44,487 nt of DNA from Acinetobacter phage NJ01. Every line of letters starts with the position of its first letter. Position 1 is the first letter of the stretch. The notes under the pieces were generated by a model. It was not told the DNA's origin, searched no databases, and saw only the letters and a list, made by a program, of their open reading frames with translations. The position numbers and the translations under genes were made by a program. Shown here one piece after another: positions 6,129 through 33,361 of the stretch. The DNA lies in sequence record OQ221563.1. The stretch is one strand, 5' to 3'.

Positions 6129-6157
6129 ATTATAACAGGCACAAAAAAGCCCACCAA
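6129..6157 (-). promoter_or_regulatory. sigma70-like promoter for the packaging operon (TTGGTG, 17-bp spacer, TATAAT), overlapping a terminator hairpin
   Basis: rc of 6129-6134 is TATAAT and rc of 6152-6157 is TTGGTG, 17 bp apart. Just upstream on the minus strand is GCCUGCC-gattt-GGUGGGC followed by UUUUUU. Confidence 0.4.
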
Positions 6158-6175
6158 ATCGGCAGGCTGGGAGGC

Positions 6176-23626: not shown

Positions 23627-23631
23627 ATTGG

Positions 23632-23660
23632 TTGCATAACCGTATTGGTTGCATTATATT
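23632..23660 (+). promoter_or_regulatory. sigma70-like promoter (TTGCAT, 17-bp spacer, TATATT) built from two direct ATTGGTTGCAT elements
   Basis: ATTGGTTGCAT at 23627-23637 supplies the -35; a second copy at 23644-23654 abuts the -10 TATATT at 23655-23660. Confidence 0.55.
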
Positions 23661-23707
23661 GAGGGTGTCCGGTTTGGACGCCCTTTTTAATACCCGGAGA
23701 CAGTGAT

Positions 23708-25576: not shown

Positions 25577-25622
25577 AAACGTGTTGGGGCAATACCGCCC
25601 CCTCACTAAAAAGGGTAATACT

Positions 25623-26177
25623 GTGAAAGCATACGAATACTGCAAAAACGCCGCCACCACTATGGAACAGCGCGGGAAAGAAAACGGCTATGACAACGCG
25701 AAAGAAGAACGCAGCGCTAAACAAATCGCTGCCGTGTTTAACGCGCTTACCGGTCGCGACCTTACCGAGCAAGAAGCCTGGACCTTCCTGATCTGCCTGA
25801 AGCTGGTGCGCCAGCACCGTAAGCACCAGGAAGATAACATCGTGGATCTGGTGGCGTATGCCGCCCTGCTGGGCGAGTCTTACATGACCGTGCATGACGA
25901 GATTCAGATCGATACAACGGCAGCACAATTCGACAGCCTCAAAGGCCTGTCCGTGCGTCTCGACGGTGAGATTAATGCGTATAACAGCGCAATTCGCGTT
26001 GCAGAGGACACGGTGGCCTCGTTCGGCAAGACTGTTAGGGCCGCCAATTTTGGAGTTGTAGCCCAGGACGTCCAGCCTATGGTCGTGCTCACCGGCGAAG
26101 ACGGATCGAAAATCTGCATGACGCAGGAAGATTTCCGTAACATGGAAAAAACACTGGTGACTGGCGCACTTAAATAA
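25623..26177 (+). CDS. Hypothetical protein with all-alpha MazG-like / dATP-dGTP pyrophosphohydrolase-like N-terminal region
   Basis: ENGYDNAKEERSAKQIAAVFNALTGRDLTEQEAWTFLICLKLVRQHRKHQEDNIVDLVAYAALLGE follows the G.Y...A..ltG..lt..daw.hm.h.Kl.R.......D...DlagYAal..E pattern. Start uncertain (GTG at 25623 with AAGGG RBS, or ATG at 25662). Confidence 0.4.
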   Translation: MKAYEYCKNAATTMEQRGKENGYDNAKEERSAKQIAAVFNALTGRDLTEQEAWTFLICLKLVRQHRKHQEDNIVDLVAYAALLGESYMTVHDEIQIDTTAAQFDSLKGLSVRLDGEINAYNSAIRVAEDTVASFGKTVRAANFGVVAQDVQPMVVLTGEDGSKICMTQEDFRNMEKTLVTGALK

Positions 26178-26218: not shown

Positions 26219-26794
26219 ATGTACGGCGAATATGAAATAACCGGTAAACAATTCCACCTGGCGGCAATGATTGCAAGCATCGAGTTTGAACAGTGGCGCT
26301 TAAAGTCTGACGCGTGCAAGCAAAGCAGACTCGTCGGTGTGCTGGGCGAAATGTTTGCAGGCATGTACCTCGAAGGGCAGGCGGGCGGGCGTAGCTGTAT
26401 CCCGCAAGGTTTGCTAATGCGTACCGGCCTGTTTAGCGCTAACACTATCGACCGCGGCGATATTATCATGGTCGGCAAGCGAAAGGTAAAATCCGGCCCC
26501 GACTTCCGAGAACATATGATTGATGCCGTCTGGACCTACGAGGTTAAGGCCACCAGCGGCATCCGTCGGGGGTTGGTGGAGGCACGTTGCGCTCGCGAGT
26601 ATCTCACTCGACGAGTTGCCGGTGTTATTCTGGTGGGGGTATCGTTCGGGCAGCATAGCGCCAGCGGCGTGATTGAGGATATTGCGGAGCCATACGTGAT
26701 CGTGAACGACTGGCCCCTGGTGGAAGTGGAAGGTAAGGAATATTACGAAAGCCCGCTTGTGCGGCGCAAAATGGACTGGGAAAACTCAAACTAA
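26219..26794 (+). CDS. Hypothetical protein (191 aa), possible PD-(D/E)XK-like fold
   Basis: GDIIMVGKRK...AVWTYEVKA could be a D...ExK core; otherwise no motif. Confidence 0.45.
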   Translation: MYGEYEITGKQFHLAAMIASIEFEQWRLKSDACKQSRLVGVLGEMFAGMYLEGQAGGRSCIPQGLLMRTGLFSANTIDRGDIIMVGKRKVKSGPDFREHMIDAVWTYEVKATSGIRRGLVEARCAREYLTRRVAGVILVGVSFGQHSASGVIEDIAEPYVIVNDWPLVEVEGKEYYESPLVRRKMDWENSN

Positions 26795-26827: not shown

Positions 26828-28618
26828 CTACGCACTACTCGTGGCTGTTTCCAATCCTGTTTCGGGCATTTGCACCCGGACAGAAATGTAGGTGCTCGGT
26901 GGAATATCCACCGGGTCGCCGTCTTCGATACCATCCATAATATTTCTCGCGAACGCAGGAGCGTTAGTATGCGTTCGATGGTAAGTGCGAATCTCAATAC
27001 TACCATCATTCAATACCGCATAATCCAGCCACAACAAAGGTTGCTTGTTTACATCCACCGGTATCTCAAAGCCGCCATTGACCCCACCCCAGGACGCGTC
27101 GGAATTGAGGCCCAGGCAACCCGATATGACATAAACACCTTTGGACACCCGTGTTACAGAGCAACCTTTGGACTCGTCGTTAAACTCTGCGGTTCCGTCG
27201 CCTTTGATTTTCACAATAGGTGATGCGATTTTGATAAAACCGTTGCTGTCAACAGTGGTGTTTAGGTCACGAATTAAGAAATCCCGCCAGTTAGTGATAA
27301 GCGCTGGGTTGGACGTACGTTGCCGATAGCGCGGGGCTTGATTTGTTATAGTTGAAAAACCAATTTGTGACCAGTTACCTGTACTGCCAGGGCCACCACC
27401 ACCCTCCGCAATTGTCATAATCTCGGCGTAGGTGTAAGGGCCACCGTTGCCCCCAGGCCACTGTGACACATCAGCGCTATAAAAGCCAATGCCCGTGTCA
27501 AGTTCCGGCGAAGCGTAAAGTGTGTTGATAGTGTGGTCGTAGTTCATTGCACGGAGACTACGACACGCCGTAAATGTTGTAGTGCCTCCTGTGCCGCCAC
27601 TCTGAACAGGTAACGCCGCGCGTTCATGTGTAGAGCTGTTATAGTAACCCCAGTCGCTAGACGCCACAAAGAATGTGTACGCGCCACTAGGTTCTAAAAT
27701 TGTGGTGTCAATGGTAGACTGCTTGAAGCGGTCGAGATCAAGATTGGTGCGTGCTTCCGCAACATCAGCAACGTCACTAAGGTTGCTGGCTTTTGCCAGA
27801 AATCTCGACGGGTCGATCTCATTCTTGAATTGTTCAGCCTCGTCGCGAATAACGCCGGTGTCAGTCTTAATCTGCTCAGTCTGGTCCTTGATGGCCTGCG
27901 TATCCGTCTTAATCTGGTCCGTCTGCGTCTTGATGATATTGGTGGCGTCGTGGATAGCCTGTGTTTCAGTCTTGATCTGGTCCGTCTGCGTCTTGATGGC
28001 CTGTGTTTCAGTCTTGATCTGGTCCGTCTGCGTCTTTATGGTATTTGTTGCGTCGTGGATAGCCTGTGTTTCAGTCTTGATCTGGTCGGTGGCATCGCGG
28101 ATGCCCGCGGTCGTGTTCTTGATGCCTTCGGCCTCGTTGCGAAATCCTTGCGCGGCAGCCTCCGACGCAGCGGCTTGTTGTTGCAGGTTGCGCATCTCAA
28201 CGGGGTCGATTTCCTTCATCAATTGCGACAGGTAGCCCCATGACATACCCTGCATAACTTGCCCGTTCGGCAGCGTTACCGTGATTTCTTCAGCGTCTCC
28301 GAAGATCGCACGCCAGTTGTTTTCGTCCGCGAGCATCAAGCGCAACGCTTTCTGTGCCTGTACTGTTACGCCCATCGTTGCCAGCGACATGGTATCGCGC
28401 TTAACGCCATCCCACGCAAGGCCTGCTGCCGTCGGGCCGTCGAACGGCAGCACCAGCGTAAGCGCGGTATCGCTTTCGACGGACGCGATCGCAACAGTGT
28501 AAGGGACTTGCCCAACCACCAGCGATAAGAAGTCGCCTGCATTAAACGCGGTAAACGTCGTGCCTACCCCGACAACCGCCTTGCTGTTATTCGTTACGGA
28601 TAGTGTACCCGCTGCCAT
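26828..28618 (-). CDS. Side tail fibre protein with a long coiled-coil pseudo-heptad repeat region
   Basis: 596 aa. Repeats of TQTDQIKTETQAIHDATNTIK and variants (residues ~175-260) give DNA tandem repeats at ~27830-28120. C-terminal Gly/Trp-rich distal domain. Confidence 0.8.
   Translation of the reverse strand: MAAGTLSVTNNSKAVVGVGTTFTAFNAGDFLSLVVGQVPYTVAIASVESDTALTLVLPFDGPTAAGLAWDGVKRDTMSLATMGVTVQAQKALRLMLADENNWRAIFGDAEEITVTLPNGQVMQGMSWGYLSQLMKEIDPVEMRNLQQQAAASEAAAQGFRNEAEGIKNTTAGIRDATDQIKTETQAIHDATNTIKTQTDQIKTETQAIKTQTDQIKTETQAIHDATNIIKTQTDQIKTDTQAIKDQTEQIKTDTGVIRDEAEQFKNEIDPSRFLAKASNLSDVADVAEARTNLDLDRFKQSTIDTTILEPSGAYTFFVASSDWGYYNSSTHERAALPVQSGGTGGTTTFTACRSLRAMNYDHTINTLYASPELDTGIGFYSADVSQWPGGNGGPYTYAEIMTIAEGGGGPGSTGNWSQIGFSTITNQAPRYRQRTSNPALITNWRDFLIRDLNTTVDSNGFIKIASPIVKIKGDGTAEFNDESKGCSVTRVSKGVYVISGCLGLNSDASWGGVNGGFEIPVDVNKQPLLWLDYAVLNDGSIEIRTYHRTHTNAPAFARNIMDGIEDGDPVDIPPSTYISVRVQMPETGLETATSSA
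27830..28120. repeat. Intragenic tandem DNA repeats (period ~42/63 bp) encoding the tail-fibre coiled-coil
   Basis: Repeated ctggtccgtctgcgtcttgatgg and cctgtgtttcagtcttgatctgg units. Confidence 0.7.
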
Positions 28619-28639
28619 ATCTGAATCCTCTTAAATTGG

Positions 28640-28668
28640 TTGCATTAATGGTTAAGCAGTGCAATACT
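28640..28668 (+). promoter_or_regulatory. sigma70-like promoter with an ATTGGTTGCAT element for the plus-strand lipoprotein gene
   Basis: TTGCAT at 28640-28645 and (A)ATACTA about 17-18 bp downstream. Confidence 0.4.
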
Positions 28669-28698
28669 AAAACTCAACCAAATATGGGAGATGATACC

Positions 28699-28920
28699 AT
28701 GAAAACTTTAATTATGATTTGTGCGGTTCTTTTGGCGGGTTGTGCGGTAGAACGCAACAACGGCGATTGCATTACGGTAGCTTTCGGAAGCTGCATGTTG
28801 CGCTACGTTGACGGGCAGAAAGTCCCTGCGGGGGATGTGGACATGCGATTCACTGGTCTGTCTGCCGATAGTGACGGCAATTTTTCCGGCACTGTTTCAG
28901 TTAAATCACGGGAGTGGTAA
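28699..28920 (+). CDS. Small lipoprotein (73 aa), candidate Llp/Cor-like superinfection-exclusion (receptor-blocking) lipoprotein
   Basis: MKTLIMICAVLLAGC lipoprotein signal with LAGC lipobox; GGGAGA RBS. It lies on the opposite strand to the tail genes, between the tail fibre and J, with an early-type promoter. Confidence 0.6.
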   Translation: MKTLIMICAVLLAGCAVERNNGDCITVAFGSCMLRYVDGQKVPAGDVDMRFTGLSADSDGNFSGTVSVKSREW

Positions 28921-28922
28921 TA

Positions 28923-29888
28923 ATGGGCGCTGGAATACTTATCGACTACAACGACGGACGTCCGGTAATGGAGATAACCGCCGGACTACGCGCTCCGTCA
29001 TACTGCACTACGTTTGACCAGCGCTGCCAGTCCGATAAGACGCTGACCATTAATACTCCGCTAACCCCAGGGTCGGATCTTGTCGTTGCGCTCACGCGTC
29101 CGGTAGAAGTGATTGAGGTCTTCGACCAAACGCTGGTGCTCCCGGACCCATTCTACGTTACGTCTGTACAACGTAACGGGGATAGCGGCATTATTCTACG
29201 AGGTGCGGACGCGTATAACGCATACAGTGGTCTTCCGCAATGGGCTGGGATAATTATGGAAGTGCTGCCGGTTGGGTCGCGCAATGCTGGCTTACTGGTG
29301 GCGAACTCGACTGACTTCACCGCCATATCCAACGTGGCAAAGCTAATGACCTGCCGATACGCGCAGCGCGTTCGCGTCAATGGTAGTATGGCCTTGCCGG
29401 TCAGTGGTGTTCCGTTCGCGCGCTGGGACGATGGCAACGTGTCGGTAGGATTCGATGGCGGCAGTATTATCGTCCGTAATGCGTCCTATGGCGGTATTGA
29501 CGATGTGGCGGCTTCGGTGGACATGGATCTTGTTATCTTCAACAATACGCCGCCATCCCCGGGGGCCGGCATTACCATGACTAACAACCAGGGCCAGGTC
29601 ACGTTCTCAACGGTAAACAAGCCGTTTGTATTCGACCGCACGATTAATATCGGTGGCGGCGACCAGTACATCGGCAATAGCCTTGTCCAGCTATCATTCA
29701 CTGGCGCGCTCATTGAGAGCAACGGCGGCTATAACCACGTCCGCATGAATGGGATACGAATGGCGGGCGGTAATGTGCGCATCGCCAAAAACCGCGTCGT
29801 TGGCAACTACTCACGGCAGCAATTCCAAATGCCAGGTAAAAACATTGCAGTTCCAACCCCGTTACTCGTCATCCCAAACATGTATTAA
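28923..29888 (+). CDS. Hypothetical protein (321 aa) co-transcribed with the lipoprotein; possible tail-associated/receptor-binding or host-interaction protein
   Basis: Gly/Asn-rich, beta-rich composition. TAATAATG coupling to the lipoprotein gene; ends at a bidirectional terminator. Confidence 0.5.
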   Translation: MGAGILIDYNDGRPVMEITAGLRAPSYCTTFDQRCQSDKTLTINTPLTPGSDLVVALTRPVEVIEVFDQTLVLPDPFYVTSVQRNGDSGIILRGADAYNAYSGLPQWAGIIMEVLPVGSRNAGLLVANSTDFTAISNVAKLMTCRYAQRVRVNGSMALPVSGVPFARWDDGNVSVGFDGGSIIVRNASYGGIDDVAASVDMDLVIFNNTPPSPGAGITMTNNQGQVTFSTVNKPFVFDRTINIGGGDQYIGNSLVQLSFTGALIESNGGYNHVRMNGIRMAGGNVRIAKNRVVGNYSRQQFQMPGKNIAVPTPLLVIPNMY

Positions 29889-29913
29889 AAAGGGGCCATC
29901 CGGCCCCTTCGCA
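29886..29913. terminator. Bidirectional intrinsic terminator
   Basis: AAAAA-GGGGCC-atcc-GGCCCC-TTCGCATTT. Confidence 0.65.
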
Positions 29914-29914
29914 T

Positions 29915-32900
29915 TTACCACGTCCCGACTTTCACCCTGCCCCCGCCAGGTAATGGCACGTTGACGCCAGTTGCGTCGATAGTCACGGTCCCACCTGAGA
30001 ATCCGAAGTTACCGGATGTGGCGTACAGGTTGCCGCGTACCGTTACCTCGTTAAACTCCGCACCGCCATCCTTCCAGATACGCCAGCCGCGCGACCCTGT
30101 AACGAAGTTATTTGATTGCAGCGTGTCCGTGATCTGTGCGAAGTTGATGGACGCGTTCTTGATGCGTGCCGTGTCAATATACACCTGCCCGCCGTCAACG
30201 ATAAACGCGGACGACAGTGACCCATTCGACGGGTGCATAATGTAGAACTGGTCAGCCTTGAACGCGATACGCGATTTAACCGCGCCACCTTCTGCCACGA
30301 CGGAAAGCTGCATACCGGCATCATAGTAAGTCCCGTTATACGTCACGCCAGCCTTAAGGCTGTATGTGGCGCTTCCGCCAGCATGGTTAAACGAGGACGT
30401 CATCTTCTGCTCTATAGCCGCGGACTGCTCCCCGAACTGCGCAGCCACTTGGGTCTTATACTCCGCCAGCGCGCCCGCTACGTCTGCAGTTGCCGTTTGC
30501 ACTTGCTGGATGGCGGCTTCCTGGTCCCCGAACTTAGCGGCAACAGTTTGCTGGTACTGGGCGAAGGCTTGCTCGTGCGTGCTTTGCGCGGTCTGCAACG
30601 TGTGGATTGACGCTTCCGCATCGTCAAGTCGCGTGCCGATCAACGTCTCCAGTTGAGCGACCGCCTTGTGGGCGTCCGCCGCCACGTTATACGCGACCGA
30701 GATTTCCGCATAAATACCCTTGTACTCGGCGCGGGCGTTGAACAATTGCTGCGCGTCGGTGAGCATCGCCTCGTAAATACCCTGCGGGATCGTGTCGATT
30801 GCTTCCTGGAAGCGTTTACCATCCTCGGAAGTCAAGAACTCGTCATCAAGCCCCTTCATGTACTCGTCAACTTTGTCACTCACCTGCCCTTCAAACGGGG
30901 CCGACCAGTCCGACAGGTTGCCGATTTTATCTGCTACGCGGGCGCGCAACTGCTGGTATATGCCGAACTCCAGCGACGTTTGCGCGTACTCCGCGCCAGG
31001 ATATGGGACGTTTGTTAAGAATTTCCACTCGGTTTCGCCCGTCTTGCGGACTTCAAGCTCGGTGTAAGAGATATCCGTCGCGGCGTTGTTGTGATTCCAC
31101 TTCCACAAGATCTGGTGGAGGCCCGAAATCGCGTTGGTGATGATAGGCGCGTTAAGACCACCGAGGCGACCTTCCACCGGCGTGATGGGAGACGACACCC
31201 ACGGGGACGAGATTTCGCCCATGCCAATTGCGCGGACGCGTGCCTGGTAGTTACCGGAGAACACGTTAGGGATGTGCGCCCCATTCGACGCCGTGCGCGG
31301 GATATTCACCCAGTCGTTACCCCACTGGATTTCCATATTCTGCAAGCTGGTGCGTCGCCACTGGATTTCATACACCACGGCATCTTTCACCGGTGGGAAA
31401 ACAATATCCACGTTGGTGATTAGCTGGCCTTGCGATGAAATCTGCGACGGTGTGATGGTCACGGATTCCGGCCCCTTCATTACACCGTCCGGCACTTGCG
31501 TGAAGATGCCTGGGTCAAGGCGAGCGCCATTATCAACGGCATCATACTTGCTATCGTTGTATTCAATCCCGCGCACCGAGAAAGTGCTGGTAGCGTCGTC
31601 ATATTCCAGATCGGTGATGCGGAATTTCTGCAACTGGATATCATCACCATCAACGCAAAACGGCTGGTCTGGAATCGGGTCGGAATCCAGTGCAGTTTTT
31701 AACGTGACCTTGTTGCCGTTGACGCTGGCGATCTCGCGAGTCTCCACATTTCCGCTATCGGTGCGCACCAGGAACTTATCACCAGGGCGGAATGTGATTT
31801 CGCTGTCCGTGTTCAGCACGGTGCGCGTTCCGGGGTCTGACAACAGGCGACCGCCGCGAGTCTCGAATCCGCCAGAAATGTTTGTATCCGCGATCGCGAC
31901 TACGCTACCAGGAATAAAGAATAACCCTTCCATGCCCACCTTAAAACTAACTTGCTGGTCAAGCTGGTTGGATATTAGCGCCCAGTGCCCGCGGCGTTGC
32001 GCTTCAGATTCACGCGTACAGCCGATCGCCGTAATATCAAGACGGTTAATCTTATGGCGGCGCACCAGTTCGACGCGCTGGCCCGTTGCGATAGCGTCAT
32101 CATAGTGGTTTTTCGGGTTGCCGTATGCCACCGCGAAAGTGGAGTATCGCGTTTTCTGGCTGCCAGATGCGTAGTCGAATCGACCATCAATTACCGAGGC
32201 GTTGGTGATAGTGTGCGACACTGCTGCGACCGGTTGGTCACTGACGATATTCAACATTTGGTTTCCCCACCAAGTCATTCCGGCGAAGATGGCAGCCAAA
32301 TCCTTAAGCACGGTCCAGGCAGCCGTCTGTGACTGAATGTACATATCATTCTTAAAGCGGATTTCTCGACCACCGTTGCCGTCGCTGACCAACTGATCGC
32401 AGCGCTGCGCAATCTGGTAGAGCGCGTACCGGTTTAACATTTGCGGTTTGATACGCCGACCGAGGCCGAAGCGCTCTGTAATGCAAATATCGTACCAGTG
32501 CCACGCTGGGTTATCCGTCCATGCGCGTTTAAACGTGCCGTCCCAGTCGCCCGAATAGGTATGGTTAATCGGGTCGTAGTTGTTCGGGATCAACACCTTG
32601 CGACCTTTGCACTTAATGGACACGCGCGGGATGTTCTGGAACGCTTTAGCGTCGAACTCCACGAACAACAGCGCGGTTAGCGGGTAACGCAGGCGGGCGT
32701 CAATAATCTCAGTGATGGATTGCACCTGGATATCATTAACCACTTTCGCCGATGTGGAGTCTGCCGTTATGCGGTGCACCTCCACGCGCCAGCCGGTGTT
32801 AACGTTCGGAGGTAATTCGATGCGGTGGTCGCGCTCATACAGCGACATTGTTTTACCAACGGCGGCGAATCTGAACTCACGCGGGTCCGCGTTATCCGTA

Positions 32901-33361
32901 TACACAACGATCTTATAGTCGATGCGCCCGCCAACCAGGTCGCCATTATCTTCGTTTGTGTACAGGGCCGGAATGCCGATGCGAATGCGCACGGCGTCCA
33001 AACTGGTGTCGTTAATCTGGCGCACCCACGGCGTGCCGTTTTCCAGTTTTACGCCGACAGATTGCTCACTTTCCACCGCTGAAAATCCGTGGATCACATC
33101 TTGGTGCTGTGTTCCTGGGCGGAACTCCACACGCGCGCCGGGGAAGTTTTCAGACAGGTCTGCATTCTGGATCGGTGTCCCGTCCAGATATACGCGCCGC
33201 CGTAATTCGTTAGGGTCTGGAATACCTTCGAACTCACCTTCTCCCAGCGCAAGCAAGATGCGGATTTTAGCCAGCGAATGCAGGCTATCGGGTGTCTCCT
33301 GTGGGGTGTGCTGTTTGCCCCCGCCGCCTTTATGGCCTGTGACGTCATAGACAATCGTCAT
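29915..33361 (-). CDS. Central tail fibre / host-specificity protein (lambda gpJ-like)
   Basis: 1148 aa. N-terminus MTIVYDVTGHKGGGGKQHTPQETPDSLHSLAKIRILLALGEGEFEG parallels lambda J; fibronectin-III-like middle region. Confidence 0.9.
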   Translation of the reverse strand: MTIVYDVTGHKGGGGKQHTPQETPDSLHSLAKIRILLALGEGEFEGIPDPNELRRRVYLDGTPIQNADLSENFPGARVEFRPGTQHQDVIHGFSAVESEQSVGVKLENGTPWVRQINDTSLDAVRIRIGIPALYTNEDNGDLVGGRIDYKIVVYTDNADPREFRFAAVGKTMSLYERDHRIELPPNVNTGWRVEVHRITADSTSAKVVNDIQVQSITEIIDARLRYPLTALLFVEFDAKAFQNIPRVSIKCKGRKVLIPNNYDPINHTYSGDWDGTFKRAWTDNPAWHWYDICITERFGLGRRIKPQMLNRYALYQIAQRCDQLVSDGNGGREIRFKNDMYIQSQTAAWTVLKDLAAIFAGMTWWGNQMLNIVSDQPVAAVSHTITNASVIDGRFDYASGSQKTRYSTFAVAYGNPKNHYDDAIATGQRVELVRRHKINRLDITAIGCTRESEAQRRGHWALISNQLDQQVSFKVGMEGLFFIPGSVVAIADTNISGGFETRGGRLLSDPGTRTVLNTDSEITFRPGDKFLVRTDSGNVETREIASVNGNKVTLKTALDSDPIPDQPFCVDGDDIQLQKFRITDLEYDDATSTFSVRGIEYNDSKYDAVDNGARLDPGIFTQVPDGVMKGPESVTITPSQISSQGQLITNVDIVFPPVKDAVVYEIQWRRTSLQNMEIQWGNDWVNIPRTASNGAHIPNVFSGNYQARVRAIGMGEISSPWVSSPITPVEGRLGGLNAPIITNAISGLHQILWKWNHNNAATDISYTELEVRKTGETEWKFLTNVPYPGAEYAQTSLEFGIYQQLRARVADKIGNLSDWSAPFEGQVSDKVDEYMKGLDDEFLTSEDGKRFQEAIDTIPQGIYEAMLTDAQQLFNARAEYKGIYAEISVAYNVAADAHKAVAQLETLIGTRLDDAEASIHTLQTAQSTHEQAFAQYQQTVAAKFGDQEAAIQQVQTATADVAGALAEYKTQVAAQFGEQSAAIEQKMTSSFNHAGGSATYSLKAGVTYNGTYYDAGMQLSVVAEGGAVKSRIAFKADQFYIMHPSNGSLSSAFIVDGGQVYIDTARIKNASINFAQITDTLQSNNFVTGSRGWRIWKDGGAEFNEVTVRGNLYATSGNFGFSGGTVTIDATGVNVPLPGGGRVKVGTW

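Follow-up and report, generated by a model that had tools for sequence, protein, structure and literature searches.

A predicted LptD-specific receptor-recognition cassette between the tail fibre and gpJ genes of phage NJ01

A two-gene island antisense to the tail genes

In the DNA of Acinetobacter phage NJ01 (OQ221563.1; 44,487 nucleotides, analysed as a whole and termed here the window), two small genes are oriented against the tail genes on either side of them. This arrangement raises the question of what such a gene pair contributes to infection, and which host receptor, if any, it concerns. The original prediction was of a receptor-masking module resembling those of Llp and Cor, made up of a lipoprotein and a 321-residue partner that could be a receptor-binding protein or a second exclusion component, with FhuA, BtuB and LptD among the receptors to be considered.

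The layout of the island was borne out. Two plus-strand open reading frames, at 28699..28920 (73 residues) and 28923..29888 (321 residues), lie between two minus-strand genes, one encoding a lateral tail fibre (26828..28618) and the other a gpJ-like protein, referred to here as J (29915..33361). The predicted coupling of the two genes is also visible at their junction (28910..28925, plus strand), where the stop codon of the lipoprotein gene (TAA, 28918-28920) is separated by only 2 nt from the ATG at 28923, and a GGGAG at 28910-28914, within the lipoprotein gene itself, is placed 8 nt upstream of that second ATG. The lipoprotein gene is preceded by a Shine-Dalgarno sequence of its own, GGGAG at 28686..28690 on the plus strand, which is 8 nt upstream of its ATG and is retained as GGRG in relatives. 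The Pfam matches of the two products (E 1.4e-20 for the lipoprotein and 5.5e-120 for the 321-residue protein), taken together with low dN/dS values against phage Oekolampad (0.03 and 0.07, respectively), indicate that both reading frames are real coding sequences; the same ratios point to strong purifying selection on both genes.

Approximately 146 phage records match the island and its flanks, with nucleotide identities of 80-95%; nearly all are Escherichia phages of the genus Dhillonvirus (JL1, Bas83-85, Oekolampad/Bas18 and SO-1 among others). Over its first 25 kb the window shares approximately 92% identity with other Dhillonviruses. By sequence, then, the window is a further Dhillonvirus member, a coliphage. 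The same locus layout, in which the lipoprotein gene is followed by the gene for the larger protein, the pair converges on J and a hairpin lies in between, was present in every relative inspected (Oekolampad, Bas84, JL1, SO-1, TheodorHerzl and Rtp), including Rtp, which belongs to a different family. At the gene junction of Rtp and TheodorHerzl, one base belongs to both genes.

The 321-residue protein and the terminal receptor

The larger protein is rich in Gly (10.9%) and Asn (7.8%), as originally noted; the accompanying statement that it has no recognised homologue does not hold. It matches PF20051 (DUF6453) with a score of 400.5 bits against a cut-off of 25, over residues 4-297 of 321, as well as phrog_1265 (E 7e-121), and DUF6453 homologues were found by tblastn in 405 phage records, from Dhillonvirus, Drexlerviridae, Queuovirinae, Klebsiella phages and others. 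A search of the PDB returned a single sequence, chain C of entries 9RPT, 9RPW and 9RQI, aligned over residues 1-321 with an E-value of 1e-194. This chain is RBP_Oeko (bas18_0025) of phage Oekolampad (Bas18), to which the window protein is identical at 291 of 321 positions over its full length (91%). The 30 differing positions cluster in residues 83-99 and 245-266. Identity to Rtp44 of phage Rtp is 32%.

The cryo-EM structures of RBP_Oeko bound to LptDE were reported by Dunbar et al. (PNAS 2025; PMC12685063). The receptor-binding protein (RBP), the fold of which has been described as two lectin-like β-sandwiches, contacts the extracellular face of LptDE, and its residue Gln299 contacts LptD Ser350 (PMC12685063). 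This glutamine is conserved in the window protein. The LptD substitutions D352Y and Y671N each abolish both Oekolampad infection and RBP binding, while assembly of the RBP_Oeko-LptDE complex in vitro was very slow and required a degraded jellyroll domain (PMC12685063).

The receptor of Oekolampad was identified as LptD from resistant lptD mutants by Maffei et al. (2021; PMC8594841), who gave the name ‘bona fide RBP loci’ to the small-siphovirus genes found downstream of gpJ, the alleles of which predict the terminal receptor. Other alleles at this locus have been reported for the Dhillonviruses with FhuA, BtuB or LamB as receptor, whereas LptD was predicted in later work to be the receptor of Bas83-85, the island of which is approximately 86% identical in nucleotide sequence to that of the window. 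By sequence comparison the island is the LptD allele of this RBP locus, and the presence of such an allele allows the phage receptor to be named as LptD; the choice of receptors originally left open is thus narrowed to one of them. As the RBP_Oeko ortholog, the 321-residue protein (28923..29888, plus strand) is near certain to be an RBP that belongs to the central tail fibre and binds LptDE.

Database annotations would suggest something different, namely a non-virion ‘membrane protein’ or moron involved in host takeover. PHROG 1265 is placed in the category ‘moron, auxiliary metabolic gene and host takeover; membrane protein’, RefSeq annotations also read ‘membrane protein’, and a gene that is antisense to the tail genes and preceded by an early-type-looking promoter could be taken for a moron. 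The protein itself, however, contains neither a signal peptide nor a hydrophobic segment, with a maximum 19-residue Kyte-Doolittle mean of 1.23, so that this widespread annotation is unfounded. Moreover, the ortholog was purified as a binder of the extracellular face of LptDE, the features placed over a homologue in phage mEp021 carry the annotations ‘virion structural protein’ and ‘putative lipoprotein’, and the allele of the 321-residue protein changes in step with receptor use and the C-terminus of J. A moron function is consequently scarcely credible.

If the island is read as an RBP locus, the terminal receptor is predictable from its sequence, and that receptor is LptDE, an essential outer-membrane machine. 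The island would further predict that mutations in loops EL4 and EL11 of LptD confer resistance, which could be useful for host-range prediction and in the design of phage cocktails; LptD EL4/EL11 mutations that abolish infection are known for Oekolampad only.

The possibility that the N-terminus of the protein is an adaptor common to different types of RBP was considered by querying with the first 60 residues, and was rejected, as the strong matches were all DUF6453 proteins. The sole match confined to the N-terminus came from Citrobacter phage HCF1, where a short remnant lies across annotated genes in an assembly marked UNVERIFIED.

The lipoprotein and superinfection exclusion

The product of 28699..28920 (plus strand) has the predicted lipobox L-A-G-C. 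Its N-terminus reads MKTLIMICAVLLAG followed by CA, giving a signal peptide of residues 1-14, a lipid-anchor Cys15 and an alanine (Ala16) at the +2 position, with a predicted mature protein of 59 residues and 6.3 kDa. A lipobox signal peptide with a residue other than Asp at +2 is what would be expected of a protein sorted to the outer membrane. The lipoprotein matches PF24052 (Phage_lipoprotein; 73.5 bits against a cut-off of 27) and phrog_4281 (E 4.6e-32), and no other family was matched at a credible score in Pfam or NCBIfam. It is identical at 70 of 73 positions (96%) to the Oekolampad protein bas18_0026 (SE_Oeko), and in the PDB it matches Rtp45 of phage Rtp (9RPS chain D; E 1.1e-8). In a four-way alignment of the lipoproteins the lipobox cysteine and two later cysteines are invariant. 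The latter, Cys24 and Cys32 in the window protein, align with Cys30 and Cys38 of Rtp45 at the same 8-residue spacing, and in Rtp45 these form an intramolecular disulfide. In Klebsiella phages of the genus Webervirus and in Gordonclarkvirinae, a homologue of the lipoprotein is encoded apart from the DUF6453 gene.

Rtp45 is a periplasmic lipoprotein, and the structure of its complex with LptDE (PDB 9RPS) shows it positioned between LptE and LptM, at the periplasmic outer-membrane interface (PMC12685063). From there a hairpin enters the LptD lumen and shifts loop EL4 by up to 20 Å, which leaves LptD in a conformation incompatible with RBP binding (PMC12685063). From its homology to Rtp45, to which the Oeko-type lipoproteins are 35-39% identical, the protein of the window is very likely a superinfection-exclusion (SE) lipoprotein directed at the outer-membrane receptor of the phage itself, and it is likely the cognate exclusion factor of the neighbouring RBP, targeting LptDE from the periplasmic side.

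The original likening of this protein to Llp and Cor is apt by analogy, given the homology to Rtp45, but not as a statement of family membership. In outline the systems are alike: in T5 (Llp and pb5, with FhuA as receptor) and in T1, phi80 and N15 (Cor) a gene for a small outer-membrane lipoprotein lies beside a receptor-binding gene, and the phage's own receptor is made unusable from the periplasmic side. A member of the Cor/Llp family masking a TonB-dependent receptor (FhuA or BtuB, for instance), alongside the 321-residue protein as a second exclusion factor, could be argued from the tail-gene neighbourhood, which resembles that of cor and llp, from one GenBank homologue labelled ‘Cor superinfection exclusion protein’ and from a weak match to the Cor family of PHROG (phrog_1119; E 0.0074). 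That match, however, is confined to residues 1-25, which comprise the signal peptide, whereas the mature protein belongs to PF24052 and aligns with the LptDE-binding Rtp45. In addition, the adjacent gene encodes a protein 91% identical to an LptDE-binding RBP, in line with the receptor-binding half of the original prediction for that gene and not with its ‘second exclusion component’ half, and the Dhillonviruses that do use FhuA, BtuB or LamB reportedly carry different alleles here. A Cor/Llp-family masker is thus extremely unlikely. The mature proteins of the two groups have no sequence relationship, and the target here would be LptDE rather than a TonB-dependent transporter. The mode of action also differs, in that Rtp45 acts by steric displacement of EL4 while Llp acts on FhuA by long-range allostery. 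A further difference from the T5 and Cor systems is that the SE and RBP genes of the window are co-oriented and coupled.

A different possibility is that the lipoprotein does bind LptDE but has another main role, for example in modulating LPS export or outer-membrane integrity, or as an aid to lysis and release. Rtp45 is lodged between LptE and LptM in an essential machine, and the separate location of the homologue in Webervirus and Gordonclarkvirinae means that the function of the lipoprotein need not be tied to an RBP. Moreover, no in vivo exclusion assay for SE_Oeko or Rtp45, and no such data for the clade, were found in the literature on these lipoproteins; SE_Oeko could not be expressed in the hands of Dunbar et al. 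(PMC12685063). Set against this, the Rtp45-bound conformation of LptD does not allow the RBP to bind, and in the small siphoviruses the alleles of the lipoprotein and the RBP are strictly co-inherited, which follows the same logic as the pairing of Llp and pb5 in T5. A main role other than exclusion is judged very unlikely.

Overall, there is little doubt in our minds that the island is an LptD-specific receptor-recognition cassette consisting of an RBP and its cognate SE lipoprotein. The module as such is already known: its prediction dates from 2021 and its structural solution from 2025. In the model for the window, both genes would be expressed as one translationally coupled operon, antisense to the tail genes, that starts from a conserved promoter in the 80-bp gap between the lateral tail fibre and lipoprotein genes and ends at a hairpin shared with gpJ. 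The RBP would be made in the cytoplasm and would join the J-like central fibre through non-covalent contacts at the C-terminal tip of the fibre; the RBP would then engage LptDE on its extracellular face in the irreversible, terminal step of adsorption. The 73-residue protein would be exported and lipidated at Cys15, and the alanine at +2 would direct it to the outer membrane's inner leaflet. If it behaves as its homologue Rtp45 does, it would then bind LptDE from the periplasm, with a hairpin reaching up the LptD lumen and EL4 displaced, so that the RBPs of incoming or newly released phage could no longer bind LptD. The expected outcome is superinfection exclusion and, at the same time, the sparing of progeny from loss on cell debris. 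For the window in particular, we infer the exclusion by the lipoprotein, the docking on J, and the use and timing of the promoter.

Two known loci provide the closest comparisons. That of Oekolampad (bas18_0025 and bas18_0026) is from the same genus and has the same gene order, orientation and protein lengths (321 and 73 residues), and it shares the promoter motif and the hairpin described below. The differences amount to 30 substitutions in the RBP, three in the lipoprotein and a hairpin loop of ATCC against GGAT. The locus of Rtp (rtp44 and rtp45; Drexlerviridae) encodes members of the same two families, DUF6453 and PF24052, with the same order and orientation, convergence on a J homologue and a hairpin, and its lipoprotein has the lipobox and the cysteine pair in common with that of the window; identity is, however, only 32% for the RBP and 39% for the lipoprotein, and the phage belongs to a different family.

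Expression signals and the limits of the exchangeable unit

A generic σ70 promoter and terminator scan of positions 28300-30200 called neither the originally predicted promoter nor the hairpin, and both elements were therefore assessed by conservation, motif statistics and folding. A candidate promoter for the SE-RBP operon is located at 28635..28668 on the plus strand. It consists of ATTGGTTGCAT (28635-28645), which includes a -35-like TTGCAT at 28640-28645, a spacer of 17 nt and an extended -10 element, TG-n-AATACT (28660-28668). The resulting candidate is σ70-like with an extended -10 but weak by consensus, with 7 of 12 consensus matches plus the TG. In six Dhillonvirus relatives ATTGGTTGCA and TGnAATACT are invariant while the spacer is variable. 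Reading the 28619-28698 gap by eye for a minus-strand σ70 promoter of the lateral tail fibre gene gave no convincing candidate.

The motif ATTGGTTGC is enriched in the window, with 28 matches at one mismatch or fewer against 9.0 ± 2.9 in shuffled sequence. Its strong copies all fall within positions 246-28645, in intergenic gaps of the non-structural half of the genome; several are followed 17-18 nt downstream by TATATT or TATAGT, and copies are kept at equivalent places in Oekolampad and Bas84. Given the invariant promoter elements, the enrichment of the motif and the restriction of its strong copies to the non-structural half, the description of this promoter as ‘early-type’ in the original prediction is plausible, despite the modest consensus match and the lack of a call in the generic scan. 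Elsewhere, ATTGGTTGCA appears to mark only the non-structural, and presumably early, half of the genome.

The expression of a virion protein from an apparently early-type promoter is unusual. One possible reading is that the RBP is made on the early programme, in a fixed ratio with the receptor-blocking lipoprotein. This is doubtful, and a literature search on Dhillonvirus promoters or transcription returned nothing relevant; were the operon indeed early, the regulatory arrangement would be one that is undescribed for the RBP loci of small siphoviruses. In a smaller variant of the proposal, the 30 substitutions in the RBP may retune its binding to variants of LptD. In the Rtp locus, the 342-bp gap upstream of rtp45 differs from that of the window in having no copy of ATTGGTTGC.

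The limits of the exchangeable unit become apparent from a comparison with TheodorHerzl (Bas14), a Dhillonvirus with an Rtp-type allele, in which the RBP is 33% and the lipoprotein 45% identical to that of the window. Between the two phages, the 80 bp that precede the lipoprotein ATG are 95% conserved. At the other end, the C-terminal 299 residues of J are approximately 95% identical up to the last ~55 residues and diverge thereafter; in contrast, J is 97% identical to that of Oekolampad throughout, including the C-terminal tip. Between Oeko-type and Rtp-type Dhillonviruses, divergence in J is hence restricted to the tip. With the upstream 80 bp conserved and J diverging only in its last ~55 residues, the unit that is swapped, as judged from the alignments, comprises the C-terminal tip of J, the hairpin, the RBP gene and the SE gene. 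The candidate promoter appears from the same comparison to belong to the conserved backbone, outside the swapped cassette. The C-terminal end of J, at 29915..30082 on the minus strand, forms the right-hand end of the cassette and likely provides the surface on which the RBP docks. Measured against Oekolampad, dS is about twofold higher in the RBP gene (0.89) than in J (0.48), in keeping with horizontal exchange of the locus.

The RBP gene and gpJ end in convergent stop codons separated by 26 nt, and this gap is filled by a GC-rich hairpin at 29890..29909, a likely bidirectional terminator, with folding energies of -16 kcal/mol on the plus strand and -17.3 kcal/mol on the minus strand (z-scores -2.8 and -2.7, respectively). 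The terminator originally assigned to the island thus corresponds to a real hairpin, but its clean U-run, CCCCUUUUU, is on the minus strand, with UUCGCAUUU as the tail on the plus strand, so that the hairpin most plausibly terminates the J transcript. Among the Oeko-type relatives the stem is conserved and the loop is variable. The Rtp-type alleles, that of Rtp included, carry a different hairpin in the equivalent place, with the U-run on the plus strand; both types are probably bidirectional terminators.

Ends of the receptor-binding cassette

Alignment of Dhillonviruses with the Oeko-type and Rtp-type alleles of the RBP/SE cassette (the genes for the 321-aa DUF6453 protein and the 73-aa PF24052 lipoprotein) showed that divergence of the J-like protein is confined to its last ∼ 55 residues. 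In the window this divergent C-terminal tip is encoded by 29915-30082 on the minus strand, corresponding to positions 3459-3630 of L006, a comparison Dhillonvirus locus with the Rtp-type allele. The J tip moves together with the cassette. At the other end, the start codon of the lipoprotein gene is the exact left recombination boundary.

The hairpin lying between the RBP and J genes (window 29890-29909; 6150-6169 in the comparison locus L003; about 3440-3458 in L006) is not kept between the allele types but is swapped for another. The Oeko-type hairpin reads GGGGCC-N4-GGCCCC with its U-run on the minus strand, whereas the Rtp-type reads GCCCC-N4-GGGGC-TTTTGTTTT with its U-run on the plus strand.

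The RBP (DUF6453) and the lipoprotein (PF24052) each have distant homologues in ∼ 76 kb Escherichia phages (ECBP2, StefiGeyer_Bas88, KarlSchell_Bas89 and LorandFenyves_Bas91) and in the Klebsiella phages NJR15, FZ10 and VAC8. In these phages the two homologues are encoded tens of kb apart, whereas in the window the genes adjoin. Their occurrence there raises the question of whether LptD is also used by these phages.

The lateral tail fibre gene and its surroundings

Inspection by eye of the minus strand of the 80-bp gap (28619-28698) upstream of the lateral tail fibre start at 28618 revealed no convincing sigma-70 promoter, even though the J transcript should be stopped by the hairpin at 29890-29909. 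Within this minus-strand gene, window positions 27861-28087 hold nested tandem DNA repeats with periods of 21, 42, 63 and 105 bp and matches of up to 92%, which encode the repeated ‘TQAIKTQTDQIKTETQAIHDATN’ stretch of the fibre. Length could vary at these repeats. Just upstream of the gene lie two conserved, function-unassigned plus-strand genes (25581-26177 and 26219-26794), one of which contains DUF6378 (E-value 1e-9), while the other had no match in Pfam.

A recurrent intergenic motif

The motif ATTGGTTGC(A) occurs 28 times in the window at ≤ 1 mismatch, compared with 9.0 ± 2.9 in shuffled sequence. The strong copies span 246-28645 and are all intergenic and all in the non-structural half, with none in the head and tail blocks. 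Copies are frequently paired, in tandem or inverted. Among the sites are 246/260, 7690, 20670/20682, 23627/23644 and 28635, the minus-strand copies 10849/10880, 11253/11288/11342 and 14157, and the opposite-strand pair 25547 (minus)/25560 (plus). In several, TATATT or TATAGT lies 17-18 nt downstream of TTGCAx, and in Oekolampad and Bas84 the sites are kept at equivalent positions. The motif probably defines a promoter family specific to the genus, or else serves a phage regulator as its operator.

Directly after the tandem-motif promoter at 23627/23644 (TTGCAT-N17-TATATT), in the region 23644-23700 and ahead of the next gene (23708), comes a terminator-like hairpin, gggtgtccggtttggacgccc plus ttttt; it is possibly an attenuator or else a small RNA.
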